A DNA stretch of 64,000 bases from Psammoneis japonica (Eukaryota). The DNA is taken from contig QPGO01000095.1 of assembly GCA_008632985.1 (NCBI GenBank), positions 121,681-185,680 of the forward strand. Reading direction: 5' to 3'. The notes beneath the pieces are model-generated. The model was given only the letters and a program-made list of their open reading frames with translations. It ran no database searches and had not been told where the DNA came from. Shown here piece after piece: positions 21,501 through 41,780 of the stretch (position 1 is its first letter; every line of letters begins with the position of its first letter). A program made the position numbers and the translations under genes.

Positions 21501-21639
21501 CTGCAAGCTCACAAGAGGGGGACAATTTCCCTGAACCTTTGTCATTTTGCATTGGTCAGATGGCCTGATTGTGCAAAATCTGGCACAATTTGGCTGCCCT
21601 TTTGCTGTGCAACTCCCTCCAACAGAAAACACACCTGGG

Positions 21640-23270
21640 GCCTGCTGCTGCTCACTCCCTCACCTTTCATCTCCTTGCAGCACACATTCTGGGATGGCAT
21701 CATTCTCCTGTGTCTTTTGCACACTGTGCTCATCAACACCTCACAATGCTGTGAGCACACCAGAGTCAAAAGACAAGCCAGGCTCACCCCCAGCAAGCAC
21801 CCAAGGCATCAAGAATGAGCTGCCAACAATGGAGATGTGACTCAGAACAACAGCAACTTCCCTGTTGGGAGCATTGGGTCTGTCACTCTCACAACTTCTC
21901 CTGCTGTTGACTCAGACTCATTTCCTTCTTTCAGCTCCAGTGCTCCTTCATTCTTTCTCAAATTTTTGCTGCTTGTTGCAAGTCTCTGCTTTTCTTCACA
22001 ACTCCAGATAAAAAAAGCTCAGTTTTTTGTTTGAGGCCTTGGGTGTGTCTCCAGCAAGTGCAAAACCATCTGTGGAAGAGGCAGATTCCTGCATCTGCAA
22101 CAACAGAATTTTGAACAAGGCACTTGTGCAAAGGATCAAACCAAGAAACACCACCACCACCAAATTCAGGGCTGCTTTTGCACTCTCTTTCTTTGCACCA
22201 TGGGTTTCTTTTTGGAAAAGACCCACAGAGCAGAATGGCGCACATTGCCCTGATCAAGCAGTGTTTGTGCACAGGAAAAGTCGGGGCTTCAAACATCTGC
22301 ACTGCTTTGCCTTTTCTCATGCAAGCAACAAGATTTCATTTTCAGAGGATTGCTTTGAGCTTCACTTTGGCATGGCCTTGACCAAATGGGACTTCTTGCA
22401 CATGCTGGTGGAATCAGAACATTTCTAAAGGAGCCCCATGAGCATCTGCACACAAGCTGCGGCTGCCATTTGACATCTCTGTGTGCATTTGGCACACCCT
22501 GCAACTCCAATGACCTTGGTTCCCCCGATGATGCACCCAGAGAGAAACTCACTGACATGGCCCACATTGACTGCTTGATGCAGAGTGGTTGTCAACAACA
22601 ATGCTTTGATGAAACACATGATTGACAACAAAGAAGGCCACTTTTTAGGTCTTGCCCAGAAGCTCGTGCAGGTCAGGCTGGCTTCAAAGACTGGATTTTC
22701 ATGATTTCCTGGAGATTGAAGCCACCATGGCTGGTTGGCATGGCATTTTCAAATTTTTGAAGAGTTGCAGCACTGGCATTGTGACTGGTTCCCAAAACCT
22801 TCAAGAAAGCAGCAAAGGAAAAGCACACAGAAATGGGCTGCTGGAAGTTTTGTGGCATCAGCGTTGATTGTGCAGGCAAGTTTGAACAGATGTCCTCTGA
22901 TGACCTGTCAAACAGTGAGCATGAATGATTGCTTGCAAGTGGAACAACCAAAAGAAGCATGCCAAAGACAAGGCCTGAACACTCATGCAACAAAAAGATC
23001 TTCTTGTGACATTGTTGTCACAGAAAGTTTTGGTGCAGAAAGCGTGACAAGCAATGCAACATTGATGCCAACACCTGATGTGCTGACTCTGTTGGTGCTT
23101 TGCAAAAGCACTCCAAGGTCATGCTGGGTGGAAATGCAGAAACAAAACAAGGCAAGACCAAAGTCTTCTTCATGCTTGTGATGGGCTGGTGGAAAGGGGT
23201 GTCTTTGGTCCTTGTGTCATCTGAGAGTGTTGCAGGCCTGCCAATGCCAAGCAGTGGTCTTTTTGGCATG
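21640..23270 (+). repeat. About 1.6-kb dispersed repeat, copy 1 (copy 2 at about 33850-35463)
   Basis: Shared blocks ccttgcagcacacattctgg, tgggtttctttttggaaaagacc, gcttcaaagactgga, gtggtctttttggcatgaa. Many differences between copies are CA vs TG. Confidence 0.8.
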
Positions 23271-25289
23271 AATCCTCAAATTGGTGGTTTCCTCTGAGTT
23301 CAACAAAAACAACTCAGCCATTGTGCTGTTGTTTTCAAAGTCTTGGGGACACAAACGGTGACCAATCTCAGTGAGTGTGTGTGGAACTGATGGAAAAATT
23401 CAAGTCAGAAGTGTGAAAACATGCCAGCGCCACCAGTGGTGCAGAATGGTTCAGGATGTGCACCACAAATTTTGTGCCACAGTGGTGCATGTGATTTTTG
23501 TCTGAGATTCCATGAACATGTGCCAAGTGGCACAGACCCAATGCAAACTCAACAAATTTTTGAAGTTTTGTGGCATGCACTCTCAACATGTTGTGGCATG
23601 GATTCAACATTGACAAGGCTTTGCGCAACACTCTCAACACCCAAGACAACAGAAAACCACTCGCAAAATCTTGCTCCCATTTTGCACATTGTGGCTGATG
23701 TGGTGTTGTTCATTTGTCTCACTTGTTTTCATTGTGAAACCCCCCAATGACACAGGGTCTCTTTCAGGCATGTGCGTTGGTCTGACCCCTCTTTGGGCAA
23801 GAATGGGGGGTGTGCAGTTTGCTCACTTGAAGACACCAGACTGCAAGAAGCTTGCGGTTGGGAGCCAGCAAGCAAAGCACTGCACCACAAGGCAATGGCT
23901 GATGGACAGTGTTGGGCCAGCACAAGCAAAAGCATTTTCCTGAGGGTGCTTTGCACCACATTTCACAAAGCCAGAGACATGAGCCAAGAAACACAGACAG
24001 TCAGCAGGTCTTCTTGCTCAGCTGGCCACCCAAAATTCAAGGTGGAGTGCAGCTGGAATGAAGAAGGCTGCAGGTCAATTTGAGGTCCCAGTGGGAACTG
24101 GCAAGGGTGGGGCATCAAAACCCACCCTGTCCTTGACAATGCAGCAACAAGAATGTGAAATTTCACAATGAGACAGGTGGCAAGAAGGAGCTTGCCCAAA
24201 CCACAGCTGGGCACAAGCACAGAGCTCTCCCATCTTGTCTGCTGTTGGATGAGCCTCCTGCAGCAGCCACGGCTGCACTGGAAATCCAAAGGTGGCAGTT
24301 GGTGGAGTGGATCTTGCAAGTTCTCTCAAGACTTTGTGACACAAAAGGCTGAAATTTGGGCACAGCATCCACAGATGCTTTGGGAGAGATGCTGTGAATT
24401 TGTTGAGACAGGCACTGGTCTGCTGATGGCATGGGTGGGGAAGGCCAGTGCTTGTTGATGGGGATTTTTGTCAAGAGCTTTTGAAGAGGATAACACCATG
24501 TTTTCTCACTTGGAGATTTCAGAGAATTGTTTGAACACAATGGAGCCAGACCCGCCAAAGTGTGCACTGAATTTCAGAGAATGAAGAAGGTGCAGATCCA
24601 TGGCAGTGGCCGAGCTGGTGGGGCAAGGCTTGGACAACAAGCTGCCCCAGAAGCCACGATGACTGGCAGCAAAACACTCACAAAAGACACCATTGTCAAG
24701 CTGTCATGGACTGACACAACTCCGTGGTTGCAGGCTGAGGGAGCTTTGCTGTCAAGCACAAAACCGCAGCACCTCAAGTCACAGACAAGCTGCTTTGCAG
24801 GCACAAGCCCAGCCAAGGGCAGCAAGTTGACAGCCCAGCAACATCTTCTCCTTTTCTCTTCTTTTCTTCTCTCTCTTTTCCTTTTCTCCTTTTCAGTTCA
24901 TTCTTCTGGGCCACCTCCAGCAGCCACACCTCTTTCATTCTTCCCACATGCCAAAATCTCATGTCTGGGTGGAATGAGGTTGGGGAGTCTGATTGGCACA
25001 TGATCTTGCAGCAAGAGCTGCACTGCAGGTGCACATCCTGTGCCCCAATGGAGCCCGATGAGGAGGGTTCGGCTTCGCCAAGCCCAATGAGAAGGGTCCA
25101 AGCAACAAGGTGAAGACCGACAAGGCGGGTTGTGTTGCACAATGGTGAGAACAACCCCTGCGCCAGGCTTTCTTCAGAATTTTGATTGCACAAATTTGCT
25201 GCAGTGCCCCCTGGAGATGGGGTGTGACAGACATGGTTCGCATTTTCTTCCATCCTCTTTCAGGCAGCGGCTGAGGTGCCGCCGGTGGC

Positions 25290-25548
25290 AGCTTCATTGT
25301 GGAACCCCGCAAAAACGTGGGGACCCCTGTCCTGGAAATGTGTGGAGTTGTGCGTGCATGCATGGGGACTGTTTGCGCAGGTTTTGTGCCAGAGCCATCT
25401 CACGAACCAGGTGTTTTTTCGAAATTTTTTTGTAGAAACTGCACCAGTTTTGTGCACGCAGGCCACATGTTTCAGTGCCACACACAAAAATGAGCGCAGA
25501 CCTCTGCAGGAGGGTCCCCACGTGTTTGTGGGGTTCCACATTGAAGCT
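25290..25548. mobile_element. MITE-like element with about 37-bp terminal inverted repeats
   Basis: agcttcattgtggaaccccgcaaaaacgtggggaccc (25290-25326) matches the reverse complement of 25512-25548 with 3 mismatches. Confidence 0.6.
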
Positions 25549-28346
25549 TGTTCTTGTCATCCGCCAGCCAGATGTGGCAGTCACCATCCGAGAAGAACCA
25601 AACCCCGTCGGCATTCCCCGGGTCCAAAAGCCATTCCTGTTCTGCGTGCACATCCGGCAGATAAATCTTGGTGCGGGGAAGGTTGTTCTCATGACGGCAC
25701 TGGGTGGGTTGTCCTCATTGCACCTGCGGTTGTGTTCCGTTGCTGCAGTTCCACCGCCACGGCGGCCACCAGACTTGTTCCATTTCTTCTTCTTGTTTGT
25801 GGGCATGGTCAAACTGTTTTCATGAAAGCAGTGGACAATGGACAAGGTCATGTCTGAGAAATCTGTGTGGTGTGTTCATCACACATGGACTGAGTGTTGT
25901 GGTCAATCACTCAACACTCTTTTTTCGTTTTTTGGTTTCGGACACAAGTTGAAAATGAGTCGAGGGTTAAAATCTGGGCCACTTCAATCTTTTCGAGCTG
26001 TTTCATCTTTTTCACTTTCTTTTTTTGCTTGGTTTTAGGATTGGCCACACGAGAAAATGCAAACAGACAAAACTCATTCACCGCCGACCCCTGCCATTGG
26101 AACTCAGTTTAGATTCTGTCTCTTTCTGCATGCCAAAGCATGCAGAGCAAGCCCTGCCTCAAAGGCAAAGTGCAACAAGGGGAACTGACACAAAACAGAA
26201 ACCAAATGCAGGGTTGCTTTGCGTTGCAATGACGAAACTCCAAAAACAAGTGAGTGCTTGGAGCAGAACATGCAGCTGTGCAATGTGCAGATGCCAGCCA
26301 ATCATTTGCACATGCATTTGGTGCGGTGCTGTCACCAAATGAACCACCATTGTTGTCTTTCACACAAGGTGTGTAAAATGATTGCTCCATGCAAAGAATT
26401 GATTTTCTGAGATTCAACTCTGAACAACATGCAGCAGTGACAATGTCAAAAGTGCTCCTCCCAACAACAAGAACAGAGTTGAGAATGCCACCATGGAGGA
26501 CTCAGCATCTCCAACTGACCCGCCAACAGAAGTCACAATTGATGGCAAGCAGTTGGATGAACCAAACAAGTCCAAAAAGAGAACCCACTTCAACGCAATT
26601 TCTTTTTTCTGCTCAAACCTGCCGGAAGAGCCCTGGTGTCTGGTGCCCATGTTGGTTTTGAGCAAAAGCCAGTTGCCATCAGTTTTGAGTGCTTGGAGCT
26701 TGGCCACCCACTTTGTGCTAGTTCCCAAGACTGGACTGCAACACTGTGGAAGCCTGTCATCACAAGAATGTGCAGGCAATGCTGCACTAAAGACAAAAAA
26801 GAAAGTCAAACAAAATCTCAGCAATGTGAATGACTCAACCAAACAAAATGCTGCACTGCATGTGAAAACCACATTAGAGTTGAAAGCTCTTGAGCACAAG
26901 AATCTGCCAAAGAAGGTCATCAAGCAAGTGGGGTGCAGAAGGTTCTTTGCATGATGCACAAGGCACCCCCCCCCCTGAAAAATGCAGTTGCATGACTTGA
27001 GCCCAGCCCCCACCTCTTGACCACATGTGGTGTCAAACAAAGATCAGCCAAAGGTGCGCACACATGACTGCCACTTTTCACAGCACTGATGCACTCCTGC
27101 AGATCACACCAGGCCATGCCATGCTCTGATTCTTTCCTGACAATGGCAAAATGCTGAGAACATTGTGTCAACAGCATGGCACCATCATGATCAAGTGTGC
27201 TTCATGGCTGTTCTGAGTGGGAGAGGCTTGGCACCAGCTGCAAGAGATCCCAATGCTGACCTTGCAGCAACGGCAGTCATTGAGTTCCTTGAAAACTGTG
27301 CCCACGAAGTCAGCTTGCTTTCCAAAAAAAAATGACAAAGCCTGATCACTTGCTGCCCCTCCTGTCTTGCAAAAAAGGGCCGCTGCCTTGCAGGATGCCT
27401 GCTGCAGCAAAACCAAGCATGGGCCAAATGTCAAAACTGACAACTGTCAAAGTCAATCAGCCCCAACACTGCATGTCACTTCTGCTGGCATGAAGGCATG
27501 TGATCACATGCAGGCACAATCATGTTGCCCAACATCTGCAAAGGTGCTGCCATGTTCATTTGCAAGGAACATCTCAAAGAGTGCACAAATCCCTCCATGA
27601 CTTCAGCAATGATGCCAAGCACAAGACCATTTCAGAAAAGCAATTCCTTGTTTGTCCAAGTGTTTCAAGAAGCTCCACCAGCAAAATCTCCCACACTCCT
27701 TCACTCTTTGCTGCCATCACACCACCCACCATCCCTGGCAACTCATCCAGTGCTGCCACTGCCAGTGCGCGGTTGTTGGACTGTGCAGGCGTGTGTGCGT
27801 GTGTGAGGTGCAAGCAGAACAAACGTAGAATTGCTGCTGATGAGTTGACAGGCAGTGGATTTTCCGCCGGCACACAATCTACGCGGTCTACATGGAAGAT
27901 AAATTTATGTTGGTCTCTTGCGGTTTTAAATGTCATTGAAATTTCTTTGACCTTGAAGAGACACATGCCCGAATTCAAAAAAGTGAGGAACACCCCAAAA
28001 CACATTTTAGAGGACAACAAAGAACATTTCTGTTTAACGGTCCGAAACGCTTCTCAAAACATCTGCAGATTCTACACAGTGAAACATCTGCTGTCAGCAA
28101 AACAGAGTCACTGTTGGACAAATAGATCCCGTGTTCTTCGCGCGCAAACAACACGATGGCGCACAACAACACCATGGCGAGAAACGCGAACGCCGTCCCC
28201 TCATCTACAAGCTGGGAATGCGAGATGCTGTTGAAGTGGTTGGACAACATGCATGCGCTGCATTCATGGGTCAAGTTGGGTTTCTTCTCGCTGCTTGTTG
28301 TTGCATCATTTTACAACGTTTTGACCCACGCCGTGTTCTTTGCTTT

Positions 28347-28780
28347 TGCAGCATGCCTCGCTGCTGGACAACACAGCGAGACCGTGCGTGAGCCTCTTGC
28401 ATGTGGCAACGTAGCATTGTCAACACGCACCTGGGAAGCACAACCACAGGAGGGCGTGGCTCTGGGTCCCAGGCAATTCCAGAAGGATGCTAAGAGAGCA
28501 TCCGTGTGAAGCACACCAGCCCGTCGTCTGGCCCACGATGGTGGCGTGATCCCACACGATGACATCACTCGTGCATGGCGCGTGATGGCTTGATTCGCAC
28601 GATCCACAATGCGAGTGCACGATCGATTTGATGCGATCCAAATGCGAACGAAACAGGGATTTGGCAAGATTCCCTGTTTGCACGATCCCATTTTCTCCAC
28701 TCTAAACCAGCTCACAATTTTCACAACGACAAAGTCGCAACACATCTTCTTTTTTCAGCGCCTGGTGCATGCACAGGGCA
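28347..28780 (+). repeat. 5' LTR (434 bp)
   Basis: Direct repeat of 33204-33636; begins tgcagcatgcctcg and ends cagggca. Confidence 0.92.
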
Positions 28781-28874
28781 CAGCAATGTTGCTCCCGCAC
28801 ATTGTGCGAGGCAACGAAATCTGCAGAAACGAAACTGCGAAATGTTGGCAGGACCGACAAATCTCAAAACGACC

Positions 28875-29918
28875 ATGAAGAAGCGGATTGAGCCGCCGAT
28901 TCCGTTCGCACGGCCGGAGAAGAAAGAGCTGCAGCAGGGCGAGTGCCAGACATTCAAGCTGCGCAACAACCCTGCTGATCCGGATGGTCCAACGCACGAG
29001 ATGGGCATCCCGCACCTTTCTGCGGCTGCATGCGAGACACTCCCAATCTTTCTGCGCAACGTGGATCGCGTGCACGAAGGACAAAACATCACGACCGGGC
29101 CAGCGAAATTTGCCCTTGTGCGTGACCTGCTGCAGGGCGATGCTCTGACGTCATTTGACAATGCTGCTGACAAGCAGGCGTCCCAAACCAACGCTGCGTG
29201 CGCAGCGTGCGTCGCGAAGCTAAAGGAAAGCATCTTCCCAAACAGGGCGGTGCTGTTGCAGAAGCGTTGTCTGCGGCGCTTCATGCGCAAGCCCGCAGAG
29301 GTTTCCACTCGTGACTGCGTCGCGAGGGCTGTTGAAATTAACGGCTGCATCTCTCAGTTTCCACCCGTGATGGAGGATGGAGAAACACCGGCACCATTAC
29401 CCAATGACGAACTATGTGATGTGTTCGAGTACGGTGTGCCGAACGCATGGCAGAAGTTCATGACGCTACAGAACTTTGACCCGTTGGCGCATGCTATCGC
29501 CGAATTTGTACAGTTCTGCGAGCGCATCGAGCAGGTCGAGCTTGCCGAAGGTAACCAGGACCAACATACTAAGGTTTCACGTAAGAAGGGACGTAGAATG
29601 GACAATCCTGAGTCGTTGATCACGACCCAGCGGAACACCCAGAAGTCGTGTATGCTACACGGGACTAACTGTGGACATGATGCGGAAGATTGCCGTCAGC
29701 TCAAGCACCACGTGAAACGTGTCAAGACTGGACATTCCAATAACGGAGGCGGCAAGCCTAATACAAAACCTCGGAATGAGGAAGATATTAATACTCTCAT
29801 CGGATCGAAGGTCGAGGAGTACTTTGCCAACGCTCAGAAAAAGCGTAAGGCCCGCGAGGAGGAGCTTAATCACTTCCGCGACCTCAACTTAAGTGATTCC
29901 GAAGACTCGGACGCCTGA
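28875..29918 (+). CDS. gag: Gypsy gag-like ORF (5' half hypermutated)
   Basis: Open 347-codon ORF just after the 5' LTR, with zinc-knuckle-like CMLHGTNCGHDAEDC. Confidence 0.75.
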   Translation: MKKRIEPPIPFARPEKKELQQGECQTFKLRNNPADPDGPTHEMGIPHLSAAACETLPIFLRNVDRVHEGQNITTGPAKFALVRDLLQGDALTSFDNAADKQASQTNAACAACVAKLKESIFPNRAVLLQKRCLRRFMRKPAEVSTRDCVARAVEINGCISQFPPVMEDGETPAPLPNDELCDVFEYGVPNAWQKFMTLQNFDPLAHAIAEFVQFCERIEQVELAEGNQDQHTKVSRKKGRRMDNPESLITTQRNTQKSCMLHGTNCGHDAEDCRQLKHHVKRVKTGHSNNGGGKPNTKPRNEEDINTLIGSKVEEYFANAQKKRKAREEELNHFRDLNLSDSEDSDA

Positions 29919-32900
29919 GAAGGGGGCCGACACGATGCAGGTAGTTTTAATACATTAGATGAATGTATAAATGAACAACTGAATTACCATCGTACACGTG
30001 TTGTAGGCCAATCCCGCAAACGAGTTAAAAAGACTCATCTTACTCCAATGTTGTTTATAGCTATGAATACTAAACATGGCAAGGGCAAGACTCAAACCAT
30101 TAAGGCACTACTAGATAGTGGCGCCAGCAGTGCTCTACTTGATAGTCGATACTGTAAACGTCTGCGAAGCCATTCAACGGCTGAGACAAACTGGACTACG
30201 GTAGCAGGCTCGTTTAGTACGTCTAACGACTGTACCGTTAAATTTTGGTTACAAGAATTATCCGAAACTGCAGAACTTAAACATACCGTCCACGTACACA
30301 ACGGAAAGTTGGGCAAGTACGATATGATTATTGGACGTGACATTCTGGAGACACAAGGCATTGATATTGTCTTCTCTAAACAGATGATAGAGTGGCCATT
30401 AGTCAATGGAGAACTACCAATGAGGCACGTAGATGCTACGGTGGAAACCTCCTTCTAGCTTCAAGATCCAGAAGCCATTTATCTTCGGAAACCGACCGGA
30501 TTTCGCGTATTTTAGACGCTAAGTACGCGCCGGCCTGCCTCGAGGACATAACGCGAGGGGCAATAGAACTTTCTATAGTTCAACAAAACGACCTTTTGGC
30601 ACTATTGAAACGCCATGAGTCCTTATTTGATGGGACATTAGGAGAATGGAAGGGAGAACCCTACCATATCCAACTCAAGGAGGGTGTAGAACCATACCAC
30701 GCTCGTCCGTATAAAGTACCTCGTGCGTACGAAGCTACGCTACGTAAAGAAGTAGAACGCCTAGTACGTATCGGTGTTCTCAAACGCGTTAACCGATCCC
30801 AATGGGCAGCTCCATCATTTATCATACCGAAGAAAGATTTAACGGTGCGCTTTATTAATGATTTGAGAGAGCTGAATAAACGGATCAAGCGATTGCCTTA
30901 TCCGATTCCTCATATCCAAGACATGCTACTCAAGCTCGAAGGCTTTATGTGGGCTACATCGCTGGATTTAAACATGGGCTATTGTCACATCCGATTGGAT
31001 GCTGACAGCAAGAAGCTCTGCACGCTCATCTTCCCGTGGGGCAAGTGTGAGATGCAGGTGTTGCCCATGGGATTGTGCAACTCGCCAGACATTTTCCAAG
31101 AACGCATGTCAGGCTTGTTTGAAGATCTGTCGTTCGTTCGAACGCACTTAGATGACCTTCTCGTCGTGACGAAAGGCACCTGTGAAGATCACCTCAACAA
31201 ACTTGAAGAAGTTTCATTGAGGGTCCAGAAAGCAGGACTGAAAGTTAACGCAACTAAATCTCACTTCTGTCAAACCCAATTAGAACACTTGGGTCATCTG
31301 GTCAACAGAGACGGAATGCGACCAATGCCCAATGAAGTCGACGCCATCAAGCGAATCGCGACCTGCGTTCATTCATTGGCATGGTGAGCTGCTGCCGCGA
31401 CACGTGGACCAGACGTTCTGAAGTCTTGGCTCCACTGACATGACTCGCAAGCAAGACTGTTAAGTGGGAGTGGATGTCCGTTGAAGACGAGGCGTTCGAA
31501 ACCGTTGAACGGGCAATGTCGGATGATGTTTTGTTGTCGCATCCTGATTTTAACAAACCCTTTGAGATGCATGCCGATGCCTCTAAATGTCAATTGGGAG
31601 CAGTTGTGTCCCAAGACAATAAACCTGTCGCCTTTTGCAGCAGAAAGCTCAACAGTGCGCAATTAAATTGTGCAACAACGGAGAGAGAATTGCTTGCCAT
31701 TGTGGAGACATTGAAAGAATTTCGAACGATTCTCCTTGGTCATCGTGTGATCATGCATGCTGATCATAAAAATCTTGCGTGCAAAGCATTCAATGCTGAG
31801 CGCGTCATGCGCTGGCGGTCAATGTGCGAAGAGTGCGGTCCCGAATTGCGCTGTGTCAAGGGCACCCATGACCCAGTTGCTGGCGCTCTTGGTCGCCTTC
31901 GACTGGCACCCAGCTTGCCTTCCGAGGCCAATCCGGATGTAAAAGACACTCCATTGAGTCGTCCTTTGCATGAAGCCTTTAGTGCAGATGCTCAAGATGA
32001 GCTGTCTCTGCCTGTTGGCTTCAAGCGCATTCAAAAAGCACAACAAAAGGACAAGCGCCCACTCTCAAGAGCCAAGGACTCGTCCGACTGCTCCATTCGC
32101 GCACATCGTGGGGGAGGGTCATCACGACAGTCAATCTGTCATAAGGACAAAATTGCAGCACCACAGTCATTGCAGGTTCCGCCAACTGAATGGTGCCACG
32201 AGACACTGTGTCATCCAGGTGAGACACGCACGGAAATGTCCATTGCCCAGCACTTCCATTGGCCCAGTGTGAGGTCTACGGTGCATTCTACGTGCGTCAA
32301 GTGCGATCGATGCCAGAAGACAAAACGCCAAACGCAGCGTCATGGGAAGCTGCCAGAAAAGGTCGCAGAGATAATTCCATGGGAGACTCCATGCACAGAC
32401 ATGACAGGGCCACATAAAATTCAAAGACGCGGAAAGGACACCTTGCAATTGTGGGCAGTCACAATGATTGACCCAGCAACTGGGTGGTTCGAGATCAAAG
32501 AAGTGTCTGCGAAACGCGCAGACGTCGCAGCAAACGTCGTGGAACAAACGTGGCCATGCAGACATCCGTGGCCAACCCAGGTGGTTTATGACCGTGGGAC
32601 AGAATTTGTGGCAGAATTTGGCCAGATGATTAAAAATGACTGTGGGATTTTGAAGAAACCCACAAGCAAACGGAATCCACAGGCAAATGCCATGGTGGAA
32701 CGTGCACACCAGACACTTGGCAACATGGCACCGTGCACTCCTTTTCAACACAGGATGTGGAACTAGACAAAGATGACCCATGGAGTGGCATCCTCTCCGC
32801 AGTGGCCTTCGCCATTGGAGCTGCGGCACACACGACCACGCGTGCAAGTTCCGTGCAATTGGTCTTCGGACGCGATGCGGTTTTGTCCATTGCCTGTCAT

Positions 32901-33165
32901 GCCAAGTGGAAGCACACAGAAACCAGAAAGCAGAAGCTCACCCACTTAAACAACAAGCGTGAAAATCAGAAACGCAAGGAGCATCAACACACCGCAGGGC
33001 AATTGGCACTTGTCAAACAGGAACAATCCTCTAAACACGGTTCTGACAGCTGTGCAGGACCCGCCAGAGTTGTCCGTGTGCATGACAACAGCACGTTGCG
33101 CATCCAGAACGGAGTGCTGACAGACACGCATAATCTACGGCAGATTGCACCCCATCACCAGCAAG
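29919..33165 (+). pseudogene. pol: Gypsy pol (protease, RT, RNase H, integrase), disrupted
   Basis: ALLDSGAS (PR). SQWAAPSFIIPKKD, DLRELNK, LPMGLCNSPDIFQ, T(H)LDD (RT). DAS..LGAV and ERELLAIV (RH). HETLCHPG, DRGTEF and NPQANAMVER (IN). Stop and frameshift at about 30456-30480, deletion at about 31362, TGA at 31441, frameshift at about 32730. Confidence 0.92.
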
Positions 33166-33203
33166 ACATTCTGTCACTCAACGGCCCTGATCATGGGGGA
33201 GTG

Positions 33204-33636
33204 TGCAGCATGCCTCGCCACTGGACAACACGGCGAGACCGTGCACAAGCCTCTTGTGCGTGGCAACGCAGTGTTGTTAACACGCACCTGGGAAGCACGA
33301 CCACAGGAGGGCGTGGCTCTAGGTCTTAGGCAATTCCAGAAGGATGCTAAGAGAGCATCCGTGTGAAGCACACTAGCCCGTCGTCTGGCCCACGATGGTA
33401 GCGTGATCCCACACGATGACATCACTCGTGCATGGCGCGTGATGGCTTGATTCGCACGATCCATAATGCGAACGCACGATCGATTTAATACGATCCAAAT
33501 GCGAACGAATAGGGATTTGGCAAGATTCCCTATTCGCACGATCCCATTTTCTCTACTCTAAACTAGCTCATAATTTTCACAACGACAAAGTCGTAACACA
33601 TCTTCTTTTTTCAGCGCCTAGTACATACATAGGGCA
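33204..33636 (+). repeat. 3' LTR (433 bp)
   Basis: Follows the PPT and ends tagggca before the CTTT TSD. Keeps many TA sites that the 5' LTR has lost. Confidence 0.92.
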
Positions 33637-33849
33637 CTTTGTTGCTTCTGCTCGCGCACCACCAACAGCTTTTCCTGCAGGGTGTGGCTCACGGCAAAAC
33701 CAAAAAGCAACCAACCAACCTAAAAGCAAATGGAAATGGGAAGTTCCCCAAGCAGTGTGACCACCTGGAACCTGGAAGCTCTGCCAAAACCACAAACAAC
33801 TTTTCTGAAGAAGCCCCACCCAAGCAATTCAAGGAGGGATTGCCAGGGC

Positions 33850-35463
33850 TGGCCGCCTGCTGCTTGCACTTTCACCCTTCATCCTTGCAGCACACATTCT
33901 GGAATGGCGCCATTCTCCTGTGTCTTTTGCATGCTGTGTTCATCAACAGTTCACAGTGCTGTGAGTGCAGAGTCAAAGGATGAGCCCACAGCAAGCATCC
34001 AAGGCATTGAAACTGAGTTGCCAATGGAGACATGACTCATGACAACAGCAATTGTGCCCTGCAATCAGCGCTGGGTCTGTCACTTCTTGCACAACTGCTC
34101 TTGCCACTGACTCATTTCCTTCTTTCAATGCCAGTGCTTCTTCATCCTCCCTTGAAAGCTGTGCTGCTTGCAAGCCTCCACTTTCTTTCACCACAACTCC
34201 AGACAAAAAGCTCAATCTTGTGTTTGAGGCTTTCTTGGCTGTGTCTTCAGCAAGTGCACAACCATCATCTGTGGAAAAGGCAGGTTCTTGCACATGTGAC
34301 AACAGAAATGTGAACAAGAAGGCACTTGGCTGCAAAGGATCAAACCAAGAAATGCCGCCAAATTGAGATCTGCTGTTGTGCACCCTTTTTGTTTGCACCG
34401 TGGGTTTCTTTTTGGAAAAGACCAGCAAAGAATGGTGTGCATTTTGCCCTGATCAAGCAGTGCTCAGACAGGAAAAGTGGGAGCTTCAAACATCTGCATG
34501 ACTTTGCCTTTTCTCACACAAGCAACAAGATCTCATTTTCAGTGAATTGCTTTGAGCATTGCTCTGGCACAGTCTCAACAGCACAGGTCTTCTTGCAGAG
34601 TCAGAGAACTCCCCAAGGAGCCCTTGAGCATCTGCAAACAAGCAGCTGCTGTGTTGTCATCATCTCTAAATGCATTTGGCACACCTTGCAACTCCACACA
34701 CAGCCTTCCCAAAATGACACACTAGAGAGGAACCTTCTGACATGGCCCAGGTTGCTTGACACAGGGTGGTTGTCAATGACAACACTGCTTTGATGAAGCA
34801 TGTGATTGATGACAAAGATGGCTGCTCTTTTGGTCTTGCCAGAAGTGCACATGGGTCAGGCTAGCTTCAAAGACTGGACTTGGGTGCACCACAATTTCCC
34901 AGAGGTCAAAGCTGCCATGGTTGACATGACAACTTCAAATTTGTTGAAGTGTTGCAGCACTGACAAATTGACTGGCTTCTGCATCCCCAAAAACTTCAAA
35001 AAAGCAGCAAAGAAAAAGCACACAGAAATGGGCTGCCAGAAGCTTGATGGCATCAGCATTGATTGTGCAGGCAAGTTTGCACAAACATTTCCTGCTGAGG
35101 ATGACATGTTCTGCAGTGAGCACAGATGATTGCTTGCAACAAATTGGAATGACCAAAAGATGCACACCAAAGAGAAAGCCTGGAAGCTCAAACAACAAAA
35201 AGATCTTCTGACAATTGTGTTGTCAAGGAAAGTCTTGGCACAGAATGCATGACAAGCAATGCAAAATTGACACAAACACTCAATGCTGACTTTGTCAATG
35301 CTTTGCAAAATCACTCCATGGTTGTGCTGGGTGAGAATGCTGAAACAAAACAAGGCAAAACCAAGCATGCTTCACACCAATGAGCTGGTGGAAAGGGACA
35401 TCCTTGGCCCTTGTGTCATCCGAGTGTTGCAGGCCAGCCAATGCAAAGTGGTCTTTTTGGCAT
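33850..35463 (+). repeat. About 1.6-kb dispersed repeat, copy 2
   Basis: Colinear with 21640-23270. Confidence 0.8.
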
Positions 35464-38400
35464 GAAAAGCTCATGAATGACACTGACCACAGACTTGTCT
35501 AAAAAAAAAAAAAGGATTCATTTGCAAAGACCAGCAGGTGCCTTGGCAAAGGAGAAGATGACAGTGCCACCAATTGGCGCCAGTTTTGACCTCTCTTGGC
35601 AAATTGCCAGAGAACGAGGAGCAAACAGCAAGAGGAGCACATGGAGGTGATGCGACATGAAGACATGCCAGGCTTCTTGTCTGCAGTGCACTGTAGAGCA
35701 GGTCATTGTGCTCAAACAACTGGATGTGCTGGCTCTCTAAAGCTTCCACAAGACATTGCAGTTTTCAGCATGCCTTGTTCATGTGCTGTTCAACCTTGGC
35801 TGGATGCAGGCATTGTTGGCTCTGGCTGGTGGTGGTGCACTGGAGCCAATGAAGAGCAGCTGCAAGAACTGCAGGGAAATGCAAGACTCATCAATTAGAG
35901 ATCTGCACTCCATTTACCACAATTCATGGCATCGCAGGGCCACAACCTGCTTTTCGAGTCAAGGAGGAAACGCAATCTCAAAACTCGAAAACGAACTCAA
36001 ATCCATTGCATTCTGCATCTGAGACCGGCTGTCGACTGTCCCATCTTGCGCGTGGATCAACGATCTGCGTGCGCGGAGATTGAAGAGCCATCGTTGCATT
36101 CAAAAATCGATCAACGATCAAGGCAAGCTTTTCATGCTGCAGCAGTTGGTGGTTCGTGTTTGCACAACCCTTCTCAACAGATGTTGCTTGGGGCAACCTC
36201 GGGATGACCTGTGTGACACTGCGACACTGCGACACTGCTGGTTTTCTAGAGCTCTAGAAAAATTGCAACAACAAATTATTTCTTCTCTTTTGTGGACAGC
36301 CAATCTCCAGAAAAGCAGCATTGTTGCATTCATGCTTGGCATGTCTGTTGCATCAAATGATGGGCACCACACTGCAAGAGAAAAGGCCAACATGCACACA
36401 GGGTTTTCAATCACAGGGAATTCCTTGTTTGACCCTGAATTTCCTGAAATGAGGAAAGACAAGGAAACCAGATGATGAGGAAAAATTAATTGTCGTGATG
36501 TTTGCTGTTGCAACATGATCCTTTAATCTGCTGGCGGTCGACAAGAACTTGTCTCTTAGAGTGGAACCTGCAGCCACCAATGCACTTCAACACACTGCAT
36601 TCAATGAGCAAGACAGATGCTGTTGGGCACCACATTCTTGAGTCCAAAGAGACAACATGCTCCCATGTTCTCTTCTCCAGCATGTGTTCTCTCCAATGGA
36701 GTCCACAACAAGCACAAGCTGGGAGAAGAGACACTCAACAGATGCACTTCTCAACATGAGGAGCTCCTTGAGCTTTCTCTGGCTGTCCACACCTGCATTT
36801 TTTGCTCATGGTGGAGTGCCGAAAGCGCACGCGCAGCACCGCAACTGACGTCACAATCTGCGCAGGATTCTGTGCGAATCTCAGTGCAAGATTTTTCCTT
36901 GTCTTCTTCCTTGTCTCAGGCTGACCACTTCTTTGCAATCAAAAACCCTGCCAACATGAAATGCATCACAGCACATGATCACACACACTGATTGCAGCCG
37001 CACTCTCCACCATGGCTGGCAAACATGGCAGCAACGGTGGTGCCAGGAAAGGTGCTGGACGGCCTTGCATTGCCATGACTCATGGGAAGTTGAAACAGCT
37101 TCTTTCAAGGTGAGTCAGGGGGGGGGGGGGGGGGGCAGAAAAAGCCCCATTCAAAGCCTTGTTGGATTCTTCTTTGCCTTCTTCTCCACAGCTGTCAGCT
37201 CCGTTTGATGTGAGCTTTTGCATCACAAACAATGCTCAGCTCTGCTGGAAGGTCACCATGTCAGTGAGTGATGCCGATTGCAGTGATGTCTCTGATGGAT
37301 TGTTGCTCTCCAGATTGGTCAATGGCAAGGTCTGTCTGGCTTTGCATGGCTGCATGAAACTCAAGTCATTTGGTGCATGGTGCTTGTGACAAGAGCAGGG
37401 AAAATGCAAATGCTGGCAATCTCAGTTTCTGCTTTGCAATGCAAAACGTGGGTTGTCAACCATGGTGTTGTCGACGCTGTCAACATTTTTGTCATTCCAT
37501 GAAAAATCCCATGCATTGGCACTTGAAGTGGAATTTTGAATGGAGACACATTGTTTGAAGAGACACCACAAGTGAGCTGAAGTGTTTCCGGCTTCTCAGC
37601 CACAATCAGAAAAAGGCAGATTGTGGGAGCATGTTCCAGGCACAGTCTGCAGCAGTCTCTTCAAAAAGTGGGGCAATCTAGCCAAGCAGCCTTCTTGTGT
37701 TTTTCATCAACAATGACGACAAATCTTGATGCAGTGGGGCACACCACCAAGGCAACACATTGTTCGTCAAGTTCCGTTGGACGAGAGAAGTGGGGCCGGT
37801 GTGTTTTCTCATCAATCTGCCCCAGCTGCCACATCTGCAGAGCATCGCGGCAAGGTGAGGCCAGACAGGATGAGAGCAGCAACCAATGAGAGTGCATTCC
37901 CTCTCCCCTGCTCACTGGGAGTTGCTGACACAGTGTGACTGGCTGAACTGCTTTCGCGTGCTGTCAAGGAGCCAGTCATTGCCACACCGCTGTTGCAGCC
38001 AGCAGGATGCACCCGCTTGCAATGGTTCCACCCCCTCCTCTCACAGGTCACTTGCTCCCACCACAGCATTTGCCTTTCCACCACAAGTGCCACCTGCATT
38101 TCCACCAGAGCATTGCCACCAAATGATGCCTTGTCCCCCAACCTGTGCCAACCAGCCCACCACCTGCTCTTCCCAAAAGTGGCAGATTGCAGATTGCCAC
38201 AAAAATGCTCCATGCCCTTGAATTTTCTGCAATGAACAAAGATTGATGTAAAACAAAAAAGTGAGGAAATTGGTGAAAGCGCCATTGGCAATCGAAGTGG
38301 CACTTGCCTGTCTCGAATCGCACATTCAATTTTTTGACACTTTTTGCAAAAAACCACAAATCCACAATTCTCGCTGACATAAAATGTGACCAAACTTGTC

Positions 38401-38887
38401 AGATGGATTGTGAAAATGTTGTTTAGAATGAAAAAAGAAATGGGATAAATGTTGTTGTTGTGTGCTGCAACTTGCACCCAAGCCATGTCATGGTCGCCAA
38501 CTGTGGTTTCAACAAACTCAAGATTTTACATCCCGGTTACTTTTGGGCGATGAGGCTTGCTTCGCTCGCCGTTAAATTCAAGCGGTCACCAACCAGCCCA
38601 AAAAATTTGCCACGATCAACCCTGGTGCAACCATGAGCAAGAAGTCATCCACGCCACTTCAGGCGCCTTCTCAACACTCGACGCGATGCAAGATTGCAGT
38701 GCCACGTGCATTTGAGAAAGATTTTTATGTGATGGTCACTTCTTTTAAAACCTTGTGGCAATGTGAGCTTGATTGCCTTGCTGGAACAAAATCACTGGGA
38801 GGCACAAACAGTGAGCGCACCGTCAACATTCGAGCCCCCAAAGTGTTCCATGCCAGCTGAAAATGACAAAATGAAAGAAAATTACAG

Positions 38888-39418: not shown

Positions 39419-41780
39419 ATGAAAGTTGCTAGTGTAGGAGTATTTCTCCTCGCTGTCCTTATTCCGCAGGAGATAAACGGAAGGAGTGCGTAGTAGAGAT
39501 TCATTTGTTGGGTATTTCTCTGCTGTTGGTCACCAATGTCTAACCCGTTGTTATTGATGTTGTCTTTCAGCTCCAACAAGACCGTGTTGTTTTCCAAGTT
39601 CTTGTGTAATTACTTCGGAAAGCAAATGTGATGCAGCGGGAGGCGACTGGCTGAATATCCGAAGTTGTGCTTATTGTCCTACACCGAGTCCAACCCCATC
39701 TCCTACGCCAAGTCCGACACCGTCTCCAACACCTGCTCCTACCCCGAGTCCGACACCTGCTCCGACGCCGAGTCCAACGCCGGCCCCCACCCCATCTCCT
39801 ACACCGAGTCCAACCCCATCTCCTACGCCAAGTCCAACCCCATCTCCTACGCCAAGTCCGACACCCGCCCCGACGCCGAGTCCAACGCCGGCTCCTACGC
39901 CAAGTCCGACACCGTCAACACCTGCTCCTACCCCGAGTCCTACGCCTGCCCCGACGCCGTCTCCCACTCCGAGTCCGACACCGTCTCCAACACCCGCTCC
40001 GACGCCGTCTCCCACTCCGAGTCCAACACCGTCTCCCACTCCAAGTCCAACACCTTCTCCCACTCCGAATCCCAAGGGTGCATGTTGCTTTTTCCATGGA
40101 TGTCGCGAAGTGACGGAAGAAGATTGCGATTCAATCTATGGCACGTGGCGCGGTCCTAATACCGCTTGCTCAAAGCAGGCATGCAAGGGAGCCTGCTGCA
40201 TCGACTCGTGGCCGCATTGCTTCGAAACGAAGGAATCAAAGTGCAAAAATGGTGTTTTCGAAGGAGTTGGAACTTACTGTGATGATTCCGATACGTGTAC
40301 TACTCCACCGCCAACACCCTCACCTACTCCTGCGCCAACGCCCTCTCCTACACCGAGTCCCACCCCATCGCCAACGAGTCAGGTGCCCGGAGCTTGTTGC
40401 TACCTCCATGGATGTGTTTCTGTAACCGAAGATCAGTGCACTTCGAAATACTCAGGCACGTTTATTGGTCAGGGTAGTGAGTGCTCAAAGCATGTTTGTA
40501 AGGGGGCCTGCTGCACAGATTCCTGGCCGTATTGCTTCGAAACGAAGGAATCAAAATGCAAAAATGGTATTTTCGAAGGAGTTGGAACGCTCTGTAAGGA
40601 TTCCGATACGTGTACTACTCCACCGCCAACGCCCTCACCTACTCCTGCGCCGACGCCCTCTCCTACACCGAGTCCCACTCCATCGCCAACGAGTCAGGTG
40701 CCCGGAGCTTGTTGCTTTAAACATGGATGTGTTTCTGTAACCGAAGATAAGTGCACTTCGGAATACTCTGGCACGTTTATTGGTCCGAATAGTGAGTGCT
40801 CAAATCATGTTTGTAAGGGGGCCTGCTGCACAGATTCCTGGCCGTATTGTTTTGAAGCCAAGGAATCAAAGTGCAAAAATGGTGTTTTCGAAGGAGTTGG
40901 AACCTTCTGTAATCATCCTGATACGTGTCCGACCAACAGTCCAACGACGTCTCCATCTGCTCCAGCGGAATCGCCTGGCGCATGCTGCTTCCCGAAGCAT
41001 TCAAAATGTTTGGACAAGACAGAGGAACTTTGCAACTCCAGCGGGGGTGATTACCGGGGCGCTGGAACAAAATGTTCGGATGACGAAGTTTGCCCGACGA
41101 CTGGGGCTTGTTGCGTCAAGAATTATTTGTGCCTGGACCTCCCACAGCATTTATGCGGCGACAGCCCGAATGTCTTTTTCGGCATTGGCAGCAAATGCGC
41201 TGATGAAAAAGATTGGTGCCCTTTGGAAACCAAAACACCGGCTCCTACGCCTCGAGCAGTTGTCAAGGGCGCATGCTGCTTCTCCAATGGAAAATGCAAG
41301 TCGTTGACAGCTCGCAAATGTAAAAGCAGGTATGGAAAATACCAAGGAGATAACGTCCCGTGCAATCTTGATTGGACTTGCCCTACCATTGTTTCCAATC
41401 TTTCTGGCGCATGCTGCTTTGCCAGCGAAGGTATTTGCAAGATGTTCAAGGGAAAGAAGTGTATTCGAAAAGGAGGATCATACGCTGGGCCGGGGAAAAA
41501 GTGCAGCATAAAGACTTGTCCCGCCGCGTTTGGAGCTTGTTGCCTGTCTGGCGGCTGCAAGAATTCTCAGGTTGCCTCTTGCCACCGCCGAAAAGGCCGA
41601 TTTCAAGGATTGGGCTCTCGTTGCTCCGAGGTCAAATGCACAGCAAGAAAGGGGGCCTGTTGCTGGAGAAACGGCGAGTGCCTGATGCTCAACGAGAAGA
41701 AATGCTGGAAGAAGGATGGGCATTTTGTTGGCGAAGGTTCTAAGTGCAGGCGTGGATACTGCCCAATTAAGGTGCATTAG
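39419..41780 (+). CDS. Secreted Pro/Thr/Ser-rich (PTPSPT)n protein with 12 Cys-rich GACC repeats, paralog 1 (~758 aa); exons 39419-39485 and 39571-41780
   Basis: Signal peptide [15 protein letters not shown]. An 85-nt gtgcgt...ttcag intron gives [14 protein letters not shown], in frame with ORF 40110-41780. Confidence 0.82.

Follow-up and report, generated by a model that had tools for sequence, protein, structure and literature searches.

To date, a targeted A:T to G:C hypermutation of invading DNA has been described a single time, in a 2026 preprint on the chlorarachniophyte Bigelowiella natans, in which its long-term footprint was weak (bioRxiv 10.64898/2026.01.13.699255, Mettrop et al. 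2026). During mutation accumulation, 231 of 302 new mutations fell into two integrated viral regions; with one exception these 231 were A>G or T>C, and every such change lay at TpA. The TpA-poor coding sequences of B. natans are enriched for reverse-transcriptase and DDE domains, and a TadA/ADAT2-like or other deaminase acting at silenced chromatin was proposed; reports of DNA activity of natural ADAT2 are, according to the work cited there, limited to amphioxus and trypanosomes. The terms CpG, LTR, gypsy, tyrosine, trinucleotide, context, diatom and stop codon do not occur in the main text of the preprint; its supplements may hold the mutation context.

Several other systems share part of this behaviour. 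Fungal RIP is a transition-only, dinucleotide-specific mutator that acts on DNA and ruins transposons in sharply bounded tracts, but it makes TpA from CpA, lowers the GC content and creates stop codons. ADAR and APOBEC3 enzymes carry out deaminase-type hypermutation against retroelements. They act on RNA or nascent cDNA and thus leave the LTRs of an element identical; APOBEC gives G>A or C>T, and ADAR, which shares a preference for 5' U/T, prefers a 3' G. In the tRNA substrates of TadA and ADAT2-ADAT3, U33 precedes A34 in the anticodon loop, and early TadA-derived adenine base editors preferred YAC. The TadA and ADAT2-ADAT3 enzymes, whose natural substrates are tRNAs, deaminate this A34, the bacterial enzyme reading 5'-ACG (PMC10661471). 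Diatom transposons are CpG-methylated (Hoguin 2023, PMC9998398; Maumus 2009, PMC2806351), and this methylation is DNMT5-dependent (Hoguin et al. 2023, PMC9998398). The literature searched, including passages of Maumus 2009 (PMC2806351), holds no report of TpA-directed mutation in diatoms.

In the window (the whole stretch of 64,000 nucleotides of Psammoneis japonica DNA that was analysed), apparently diatom DNA, the same signature has run to its final stage in whole transposon relics that lack TA, and one young, datable element is caught half-way. As in B. natans, to the extent that the preprint describes it, the changes are nearly only A>G and T>C at TpA, affect both strands, give TpG and CpA as products, and are limited to foreign or transposon-derived integrated DNA in an otherwise normal nuclear genome. 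The host there is a chlorarachniophyte (Rhizaria), whereas here it is probably a diatom: the assignment is based on one host gene, whose best named matches are diatoms, and the LMBR1 frame was placed by the Protein Atlas no more closely than Eukaryota. The B. natans targets still contain many TpA steps (rho 0.45 in the giant-virus region), whereas TA was reduced here to rho 0.00–0.10 in 30 of 64 1-kb windows. The base-sharp tract edges and the mosaic of kept and mutated tracts are unexplained by the known features of the B. natans process. We consider it very probable that the two processes are of the same kind. The details that are new here are a context preference TAY > TAG > TAA, the base-sharp edges and the reading frames that stay open.

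The gypsy element and its tracts

The region singled out by the original prediction is the pol of a 5.3-kb Ty3/gypsy LTR element (28347–33636) with a 4-bp target duplication, CTTT (Table 1). The element has the features of this family: LTR ends of the form TG...CA, the target duplication and the order PR-RT-RNaseH-INT. The pol frame matched the Pfam families RVP, RVT_1, RT_RNaseH_2, RT_RNaseH, Integrase_H2C2 and rve, the last with 26.3 bits and thus under its cutoff of 32.6 bits. The frequency of TA was 67 per kb in the unmutated and 9 per kb in the mutated parts of the element; about 87% of the TA steps were lost in the two mutated tracts, while CG remained at rho 0.8–1.0 and the GC content rose from 46.6% to 51.6–56%. 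The tract edge in pol is sharp to the base: the last kept TA is at 30980–30981 and the first converted one at 30983–30984.

Table 1. Features of the window, with their positions, strand and composition.
Feature	Position	Strand	Remarks
5' target-site duplication CTTT	28343–28346	+	identical four bases at 33637–33640; contig joint 28342>33637 shares 4 letters
5' LTR (TG...CA)	28347–28780	+	TA-depleted nearly throughout; CG kept
Mutated tract 1 (5' LTR and first part of gag)	28347–29350	+	rho TA 0.10, CG 1.02; GC 56%
Unmutated tract (end of gag, protease, first half of RT)	29398–30981	+	rho TA 0.99, CG 1.18; GC 46.6%; Pfam RVP, RVT_1
Mutated tract 2 (second half of RT, RNase H, integrase, first ~85 bp of 3' LTR)	30983–33290	+	rho TA 0.19, CG 0.80; GC 51.6%; Pfam RVT_1, RT_RNaseH_2, RT_RNaseH, Integrase_H2C2, rve (below cutoff)
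3' LTR	33204–33636	+	first ~85 bp mutated; unmutated and TA-rich from about 33320
3' target-site duplication CTTT	33637–33640	+	same bases as 28343–28346
Six old tracts with hardly any TA or CG	about 9000–11000, 13600–16900, 19600–27800, 33800–38500, 42000–47800, 52800–61900		together 33.1 kb; 3.2 TA per kb
Ty1/copia relic in old tract without TA and CG	55382–58560	+	found by read-through homology search
Weak second copia RNase H relic holding EAEFHAA	46550–46762	-	4 of 120 copia relatives match, E 9e-4 to 8e-3

Loss of conserved tyrosines in pol

The translated pol was compared with the best 120 of 1117 matches (48–60% identical), and columns were taken as conserved when the consensus reached at least 70% among at least 40 relatives. 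The element was identical to the consensus at 130 of 146 conserved columns in 29919–30979 and at 321 of 426 in 30980–33200. From base 30983 on, Tyr was kept at 1 of 23 Tyr-conserved columns (10 had become Cys, 10 His, and one each Met and Ala), compared with 320 of 403 for the other conserved residues (Fisher p = 1.3e-13). Upstream of 30981, Tyr was kept at 4 of 5 conserved columns, and the difference between the two zones was significant (Fisher p = 0.0012). Of the in-frame codons, 2 of 804 encoded Tyr in the mutated part, compared with 10 of 379 upstream; the two frames overlap by about 40 codons. The Tyr content of the relatives was 3.8%, and none of the 120 intact relatives was poor in Tyr, the lowest value being 2.9%. 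The recoding of conserved Tyr to Cys or His, as read in the original prediction, is thus real; it is neither a trait of intact relatives nor matched by the replacement of other residues.

All 13 gypsy motif strings on which that reading was built were found in their places, and 14 of the 16 positions called former Tyr have Tyr as the majority residue in the 120 relatives. The counts of relatives with Tyr were (present residue in brackets) 120 for MGY[C]H, 111 for WGK[C], 120 for T[H]LDD, 120 and 114 for LE[H]LG[H], 110 and 120 for S[CC]RD, 96 for LS[H]PDF, 108 for VAF[C], 117 for LN[C], 67 for EE[C]G (with Phe in 53), 117 for R[C]VKG, and 120 each for EW[C]H and GP[H]KI. The catalytic YxDD of the reverse transcriptase thus reads HLDD in this copy. 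The remaining two positions did not hold. The His of FEM[H]ADAS is His in 94 of 120 relatives (Tyr in 23), which leaves two TA hits (I>M and T>A) of the three proposed for this motif, and the column of the second His in HF[H]WP is unconserved (Thr 40, Trp 35, Tyr 28, His 10).

The nucleotide changes behind the replacements point to TpA in the same way. Single-step replacements at conserved columns of 30980–33200 (n = 81) comprised 32 A>G, of which 27 directly followed T, and 21 T>C, of which 18 directly preceded A. Taken together, 45 of these 81 lay at TpA, compared with 0 of 11 in the unmutated, TA-rich part of the element. Of the 53 A:T to G:C changes, 8 lay off TpA; opposite to these 53 stood 7 G>A or C>T changes, 5 of them at CpG. 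Codons of Ile, Thr, Asn, Lys and Leu that contain or follow TA showed the replacements to be expected from such changes (I>V/M/T, T>A, L>P/S). Both strands were affected, since the Tyr codons had become TGY in 13 and CAY in 11 cases. The two outcomes were not clustered along these 24 codons (runs test, 12 runs versus 12.9 expected, p = 0.43), nor in the 5' LTR. All 45 inferred sites taken together gave 14 runs versus 22.6 expected (p = 0.005), but many of these sites can reveal one outcome only, whereas both are visible at the Tyr codons; a strand-coordinated clustering of outcomes is not claimed.

Comparison of the two LTRs

The 5' and 3' LTRs differed at 35 of 434 aligned sites. All 35 differences were transitions, without a single transversion, and 33 lay inside TA, TG, CA or CG (YR) steps. 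For comparison, control gene duplicates (92% identical) differed at 125 sites, only 68 of which were transitions and 38 in YR steps. At 19 sites TA in one LTR was opposed to TG or CA in the other; the mutated copy was the 5' LTR at 18 of these (8 TG and 10 CA) and the 3' LTR at one. At four dinucleotide steps TG in one LTR was opposed to CA in the other, which requires a TA ancestor. The LTRs must have been identical at insertion, and the target duplication matches on both sides; they now differ at 35 sites, so that the change came after integration. Given a correct assembly, the mutator acted on DNA already in the chromosome. The original prediction had taken TA as the ancestral state and TA to TG/CA as the direction of change, and this is supported by three independent lines: the LTR comparison, the conservation of the protein and the normal Tyr content of intact relatives.

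The reverse direction, in which a RIP-like change of CpA to TpA would have made the TA-rich parts and the TG/CA-rich parts would be original, can be regarded as refuted, even though the unmutated part, with a TA rho of 0.99, exceeds the host genes (0.4–0.7). It is the TA-rich part that is intact (130 of 146 conserved columns, Tyr at 4 of 5), whereas 22 of 23 conserved Tyr are gone from the TG/CA-rich part. The TG-against-CA steps of the LTRs are unreachable from TG or CA by single steps, and equally high TA (rho 0.97–1.33) was found in several intact relatives, in 5 of 80 metagenome loci. RIP in its known form would moreover enrich TpA, which is down to rho 0.1–0.2 in the mutated tracts; here TpA is destroyed, the GC content rises and stops vanish.

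It is very unlikely that the changes are RNA edits, i.e. ADAR-like A-to-I conversions on double-stranded retrotransposon transcripts that were fixed by reverse transcription. Hyper-edited retroelements are known in animals, to which ADARs are, to our knowledge, confined. The preference of ADARs for U 5' of the edited A (PMC10661471) agrees with the changes at TpA. However, LTRs made from one cDNA must match and carry the same edits, so that the 35 differences already contradict this origin for the present copy; the LTR differences likewise set the element apart from the known action of APOBEC3. In addition, ADARs favour a 3' G (UAG), whereas TAG is a poorer target than TAY here, and the process in B. 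natans acts, according to the preprint, on single-copy integrated viral DNA. Neither the G>A or C>T changes of APOBEC nor the 3' G of ADAR corresponds to the TpA changes seen here.

Origin of the mosaic and other copies of the element

We give appreciable, though minority, weight to the possibility that the mosaic represents an old, fully mutated copy that was partly overwritten by ectopic gene conversion, or a stitching of several copies by the assembler or polisher. The TpA signature would stand in either case, and only the tract structure and the reading of the copy as young would change. Run X1 contained 5165 contig pieces that match the element; the gypsy family is therefore multi-copy, in keeping with conversion or chimerism. 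Two exact and very deep contigs lie in unmutated tracts (30590–30695, depth 1290; 33435–33561, depth 785), while the contig listed for the mutated tract of pol (31265–31363) has 7 differences at a word depth of 237, and three listed contigs in mutated tract 1 differ at 8–11 places at depths of 55–63. The base-sharp edge also resembles a recombination junction. The matching 4-bp target duplications, on the other hand, speak against a crossover between two elements; the four TG-against-CA steps in the first ~85 bp of both LTRs indicate that each LTR was mutated in place; and the lack of transversions among the 35 LTR differences makes the copy young on the background clock. Among the listed Logan contig pieces (three runs, one sample), none spans the element or the 30981/30983 edge.

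At 109 places where the X1 pieces have another letter, the changes were A>G 28, T>C 31, C>T 21, G>A 24 and transversions 5, and several steps that are TG in the window copy are CA in others, and vice versa. The window copy reads TGC at the invariant Tyr codon at 32194; most other copies have C at its first base, which implies that a change other than the one at TpA followed in them.

A signature like that of the window was present in 3 of 80 related metagenome loci. Locus L033 had a TA rho of 0.01 and kept Tyr at 0 of 13 columns; L062 kept 4 of 20, and L063 kept 0 of 12 in 4200–7657. Tyr was kept at 27 of 29 columns in each of two TA-normal metagenome control loci. No relative closer than 68% in protein was found in the metagenome scan.

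Targets in the window

About half of the window is without both TA and CG. Nearly all TA is gone (1–6 per kb), and of the 30 1-kb windows with a TA rho of 0.00–0.10, 29 had a CG rho of 0.00–0.25, the value being 0.55 in 25001–26000. The old relics contain 3.2 TA per kb, compared with 37.4 per kb in the genic tracts, where the TerC, sulfatase and LMBR1 genes retain their TA. An inverted duplication allows the two kinds of DNA to be compared directly: its gene arms retain TA and CG (34/35 and 42/42), whereas its relic arms have 1–5 TA, and TG-against-CA steps numbered 10 in the relic arms and none in the gene arms. The duplicates 39676–41781 and 49956–52088 (2.1 kb, 92% identical) and the sulfatase gene arms are normal in TA and CG. 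Any duplicate is a target for RIP; these were left untouched, which shows that being duplicated does not by itself set off the process here. The mutation is confined to transposon-derived DNA, and the neighbouring genes are spared.

Sequence context and nature of the mutating activity

The base 3' of the surviving TA steps was A in 52–55% and C in 8%, whereas the unmutated part had A in 26% and C in 28% (chi-square p = 3e-5 and 1e-12). The tetranucleotides ATAC, ATAG, ATAT and GTAC were absent from the mutated gypsy tracts. The activity thus prefers TAY over TAG and TAG over TAA.

The most probable reading is that TpA in integrated DNA is hypermutated to TpG or CpA, the A of 5'-TA-3' undergoing an A:T to G:C transition on one strand or the other, and that this is directed at transposon-derived DNA and spares neighbouring genes. 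Conserved Tyr codons (TAY) thereby become Cys (TGY) or His (CAY) codons. Such changes can create no stop codon and destroy TAA and TAG, so that the element is killed by missense while long frames stay open. A slower second process, CpG to TpG or CpA, would follow, and both together would yield the old tracts without TA and CG. Judged from sequence, this explanation as a whole is probable. Its pattern, direction, post-integration timing, restriction to transposons and TAY > TAG > TAA preference are well established, as read from end states rather than from new mutations.

The chemistry is less certain. As proposed for B. natans, there is about an even chance that adenine is deaminated to inosine in DNA by a putative TadA/ADAT2-like or other deaminase recruited to silenced chromatin. 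A small chance attaches to errors of a Pol eta-like polymerase in long repair patches started at deaminated 5-methyl-CpG, with the loss of TA as a by-product in methylated transposons. In phase 2 of somatic hypermutation in animals the hotspot is WA, and A>G after T on both strands would fit such an origin. So would the targets, which are transposons and in diatoms CpG-methylated (PMC9998398, PMC2806351). A WA hotspot should, however, strike AA too, and A>G followed A in 2 cases versus 27 after T at the conserved columns. With about 87% of TA lost at a CG rho of 0.8–1.0, very many faithful CpG repairs would be needed per CpG lost, and a near-total removal of TA (1–6 per kb) exceeds what is expected of an error-prone side reaction.

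A lesion on thymine has a slim chance of being the cause: a T-modifying enzyme (e.g. a TET/JBP-type hydroxylation of T in TpA) would leave a base that is read or repaired as C. TpA is self-complementary, and T>C on one strand is therefore indistinguishable from A>G on the other; the balance of TG and CA (13 versus 11 at the Tyr codons, 8 versus 10 at the 5' LTR sites) is also compatible with it. No pathway is known to us by which modified T would end up as C at high yield. The TAY preference resembles the context in which TadA finds its tRNA target, 5'-ACG (PMC10661471), which lies after U33, and also the YAC preference of the early TadA-derived editors.

A more tentative proposal, to which we assign somewhat less than an even chance, is that diatoms and the organisms of L033, L062 and L063 run a dedicated DNA-editing defence, in which the A of 5'-TAY-3' (TAG less, TAA poorly) would be deaminated on either strand until silenced transposons have lost all TpA. 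The putative enzyme would be active on DNA and related to the tRNA A34 deaminases, which likewise target an A after U in their natural substrates. If so, adenine-deaminase genome defence would, together with Bigelowiella, be an old and widespread trait of SAR lineages and a mirror image of fungal RIP: GC would go up, stop codons and TATA- and AATAAA-like signals would be removed, and proteins would be killed via Tyr>Cys/His. The data suggest that the TpA process is not a curiosity of one alga. Diatoms are of major ecological weight and include genetically tractable species, and the specifics that can be tested there are the order TAY > TAG > TAA, action after integration, sharp edges and the loss of TA before that of CG.

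Copia relics and decay of CpG

The Ty1/copia relic at 55382–58560 showed the same loss of Tyr as the gypsy pol, in agreement with the original prediction, and its homology was confirmed. Tyr was kept at 0 of 13 conserved columns (Cys 7, His 5, Leu 1), and Arg at 4 of 20 (Gln 7, stop 3, Cys 2, and Leu, His, Trp and Lys once each). Replacements typical of CpG decay occurred in the old tracts, i.e. Arg>Gln/Cys/Trp/stop (TGA), Thr>Met and Asp>Asn. The decay of CpG in methylated transposons matches this second signature of the old tracts, CG loss included, but it leaves TpA untouched and, in this window, lags behind the loss of TpA, the gypsy tracts having lost TA while CG is still present. The CpG depletion of the old tracts probably reflects the decay to which methylated CpG is prone.

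The copia relic was recognised by the read-through search only. None of the 73 long frames of the depleted tracts gave a Pfam match above cutoff (3 weak matches lay below it), and none of the 45 short frames around the copia motifs exceeded any family cutoff. Since the relics keep long open frames and lose Tyr and Arg, they may be annotated as false genes and overlooked in profile searches. In the weak second relic, the EAEF[H] position, which had also been read as a former Tyr, is Leu in the few copia relatives that match it weakly (4 of 120).

Loss of conserved tyrosines in the gypsy pol

The flagged stretch proved to cover the last (3') two thirds of the pol gene in a single Ty3/gypsy LTR retrotransposon (Table). 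Its 440-residue RNase H-integrase frame matched 1117 longer proteins, and the best 120 of these, intact polyproteins of about 800–1500 residues (mostly ~1050) with 48–60% identity, were aligned to the element with tblastn; only columns with 40 or more relatives and a consensus of 70% or higher were used. Between 30980 and 33200 (mutated zone) the window matched the consensus of these relatives at 321 of 426 columns. Tyrosine was retained at 1 of 23 columns (Cys 10, His 10, Met 1, Ala 1), while Ala (23/23), Gly (25/26), His (10/10) and Trp (14/15) were kept; Ile (15/34) and Thr (15/29) were also lost heavily, to Val, Met, Thr and Ala. Between 29919 and 30979 (unmutated zone) the consensus was matched at 130 of 146 columns, and tyrosine at 4 of 5. 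The loss of Tyr exceeded other replacements (Fisher, Tyr versus every other residue, p = 1.3e-13) and differed between the mutated and unmutated zones (p = 0.0012). The catalytic Y of YxDD, Tyr in all 120 best-listed relatives (of 1117), reads H in the window.

The original prediction, that conserved pol tyrosines were systematically recoded to Cys or His, is confirmed overall against the best 120 of 1117 relatives. Its 13 gypsy motif strings were all found where it placed them, and 14 of the 16 positions it took for former tyrosines are majority Tyr in these 120, several of them in 120/120; the other two are not. FEMHADAS had been explained by three TA hits; its H is His in 94 of the 120 best-listed relatives (of 1117), so the number of hits there falls to two. 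The best-listed relatives vary at the column of the second H of HFHWP, and its reading as a former Tyr does not stand.

Features of the window and of related metagenome loci (rho, dinucleotide odds ratio)
Feature	Position	rho TA	rho CG	GC	Remarks
Inverted duplication	11706-14104 and 16238-18679				84.5% identical; sulfatase gene per arm
copia fragments	13778-14104 (-), 16142-16574 (+)				inner ends of inverted duplication
Ty3/gypsy element	28347-33636				LTRs 434 + 433 bp; TG...CA ends; 4-bp duplication CTTT either side
Mutated tract 1	28347-29350	0.10	1.02	56%	
Unmutated tract	29398-30981	0.99	1.18	46.6%	
Retroviral protease	29919-30455				Pfam
RVT_1	30380-31384				Pfam
Mutated tract 2	30983-33290	0.19	0.80	51.6%	
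RT_RNaseH_2, RT_RNaseH, Integrase_H2C2, rve	31444-32763				Pfam; rve 26.3 bits, under the 32.6-bit cutoff
Unmutated end of 3' LTR	33320-33636	normal			
Paralogous long open frames	39558-41780, 49037-52087				740 and 1016 residues; without Pfam match
copia relic	55382-58560				
Metagenome locus L033		0.01			Tyr 0/13
Metagenome locus L062					Tyr 4/20
Metagenome locus L063	4200-7657				Tyr 0/12

Direction and timing of the changes

For each changed conserved column, the single base step that would turn a codon for the consensus residue into the window codon was tabulated. In the mutated zone 81 changes required one step and 24 required more. The one-step changes included 32 A>G and 21 T>C; a T immediately preceded 27 of the former, and an A immediately followed 18 of the latter. 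G>A occurred four times, always after C. None of the 11 one-step changes of the unmutated zone was at TpA. Alignment of the two LTRs over 434 sites gave 35 differences, each a transition and 33 of them within YR (pyrimidine-purine) steps: TA versus TG or CA at 19, CG versus TG or CA at 6, and TG versus CA at 4 steps. The simplest account of a TG-versus-CA step is that TA (or CG) changed once in each LTR. Control gene duplicates that are 92% identical showed 125 differences, of which transitions accounted for only 68. The codon steps and the LTR differences bear out the predicted direction, from ancestral TA to TG or CA, and the reverse is refuted. An insertion begins with identical LTRs, and this one has a matching target duplication, so the changes arose in the chromosome and not in RNA; RNA editing is contradicted by the LTR differences. 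The mutator acted after integration, specifically at TpA, by transitions only, on both strands, and on transposon DNA only.

Mosaic of mutated and unmutated DNA

Over the whole 64 kb the odds ratios were 0.27 (TA), 0.50 (CG), 1.59 (TG) and 1.53 (CA). TA was at or below 0.10 (0–6 TA per kb) in 30 of the 64 one-kb windows, in which TG and CA reached 1.45–2.28; CG was 0.00–0.25 in 29 of these 30, the exception being 25001-26000 (0.55). The stretches between such void tracts are ordinary (TA 0.4–0.7, CG 0.8–1.0); TerC, LMBR1 and two sulfatases are encoded there by frames that lack introns. The gypsy element represents a third state and is itself mosaic. The start of its second mutated tract is sharp to the base: 25 TA steps lie within 30710-30981, the final one being the TAT codon at 30980; the adjoining codon 30983 (Tyr in all 120 best-listed relatives, of 1117) is TGT, and the first further TA follows only at 31149. 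This mosaic may reflect patchwise targeting, in keeping with outcomes that are independent between the two LTRs over their first 85 bp and with the 0 transversions that separate them. It may also stem from gene conversion from unmutated copies or from an assembly chimera, and two exact, very high-depth contigs fall in unmutated tracts, as either would have it. In the intact gypsy part, TG (1.00) and CA (0.92) are below those of the host genes, and TA and CG are above; of the 80 related metagenome loci, five have a similarly high TA (0.97–1.33).

Properties of the process

TA was lost before CG. In the mutated gypsy tracts ~87% of TA is gone (9.1 versus 67.3 per kb) with CG still at 0.8–1.0, and no one-kb window of the 64 kb has lost CG but kept TA. 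The opposite order was seen in two metagenome loci (L062:1-1750 and L073:2250-5950), where CG is lost and much TA kept; the two decays are therefore separable and need not share organisms. Surviving TA steps are TTAA, CTAA/TTAG and ATAA/TTAT; ATAC, ATAG, ATAT and GTAC, which together supply 37% of the TA in the unmutated part, are absent from the mutated gypsy tracts. The base 3' of surviving TA is A in 52–55% and C in 8%, versus 26% and 28% in the unmutated part (p = 3e-5 and 1e-12). We read this as a context preference TAY > TAG > TAA. At Tyr codons the strand outcomes were even (13 versus 11) and unclustered (12 runs, 12.9 expected). Clustering over all 45 sites is probably an artefact, as some sites can reveal one outcome only.

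Duplication is not the trigger, since TA and CG are retained both in a duplicate of 2.1 kb and in the gene arms of the inverted duplication. These gene arms are 7% different, whereas the transposon-derived arms are 22% different, have lost TA and CG, and show 10 TG-versus-CA steps. The two paralogous long open frames have a 2.1-kb stretch in common (92% identical), internal tandem repeats of ~315 bp and normal dinucleotide content.

The process is incapable of making stops and destroys TAA and TAG. The copia relic, which sits in an old TA/CG-void tract, was recognised only by a read-through search; stops in its read-through frame (56587-58485) were TGA in 22 of 23 cases and TAA in one. As predicted, it has the same pattern, with Tyr kept at 0 of 13 positions (Cys 7, His 5, Leu 1). 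Arg was kept at 4 of 20 (Gln 7, TGA 3, Cys 2, and Leu, His, Trp and Lys 1 each), and Asp>Asn (5) and Thr>Met (4) are among its further replacements; the relic combines TpA loss with ordinary CpG decay. The second copia relic, with a predicted loss of Tyr, gave weak matches (4 of 120 relatives, E 9e-4 to 8e-3). TA-void tracts contain unusually long open frames in all six frames, which in dead DNA could pass for genes.

Candidate mechanism and precedent

Deamination of adenine to inosine in DNA, by a putative enzyme reading T-A-Y, would produce these changes. Chemistry at the thymine instead is a rival that sequence cannot separate from it. Pol eta-like repair errors, another rival, are disfavoured because AA was not hit (A>G 2 after A, 27 after T). 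In tRNA, U33 stands before A34. The A34 site of tRNA deaminases, 5'-ACG, resembles T-A-Y, and ADAR prefers UAG, unlike T-A-Y here (PMC10661471).

A full-text literature search yielded one direct precedent, the bioRxiv preprint of Mettrop et al. (10.64898/2026.01.13.699255). In their Bigelowiella natans mutation-accumulation lines 231 of the 302 new mutations lay in two integrated viral regions, one from a giant virus and one from a virophage; with one exception they were A>G or T>C, and each A>G or T>C was at TpA. TpA-poor coding sequences of that genome were enriched for reverse-transcriptase and DDE domains, and an ADAT2-like DNA adenine deaminase was proposed. The main text of that preprint is silent on CpG, LTR, gypsy, tyrosine, trinucleotide, context, diatom and stop codon. 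The phenomenon is of the kind that was reported from another lineage in 2026; here it occurs in a probable diatom, has run almost to its end, and comes with more mechanistic detail. The host is not B. natans: its LMBR1 frame has diatoms as best named matches (Epithemia, Nitzschia, Entomoneis, Thalassiosira and others), 55–62% identical, with none nearer; literature searches returned no report of such mutation in diatoms. Diatom transposons are CpG-methylated by DNMT5a (PMC9998398, PMC2806351), which would account for the second signature, CpG loss.

Other copies and related loci

The gypsy family is multi-copy, as the element is matched by 5165 short pieces of contigs from a public sequencing run (X1). 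Their 109 variant places comprise A>G 28, T>C 31, C>T 21, G>A 24 and 5 transversions, and several steps are TG in the window copy versus CA in other copies, or vice versa. The Tyr codon 32194-32196 (Tyr in 120/120 best-listed relatives, of 1117) is TGC in the window copy; its first base is C in most other X1 copies (depth 5523 of 7111), which implies that this codon changed a second time, in a way not covered by the TpA rule, and hints at an extra step beyond TpA in those copies.

Three of 80 related gypsy loci from metagenomes (L033, L062, L063) carry the same signature, and two TA-normal control loci each kept Tyr at 27 of 29 positions. In two further runs of the same sample (X2, X3) contigs connect 28342 straight to 33637 with 4 letters in common, as at a site without the element. 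This joint, with 4 mismatches in 96 bases, represents either an allele without the insertion or a paralogue of an old repeat that took the insertion.
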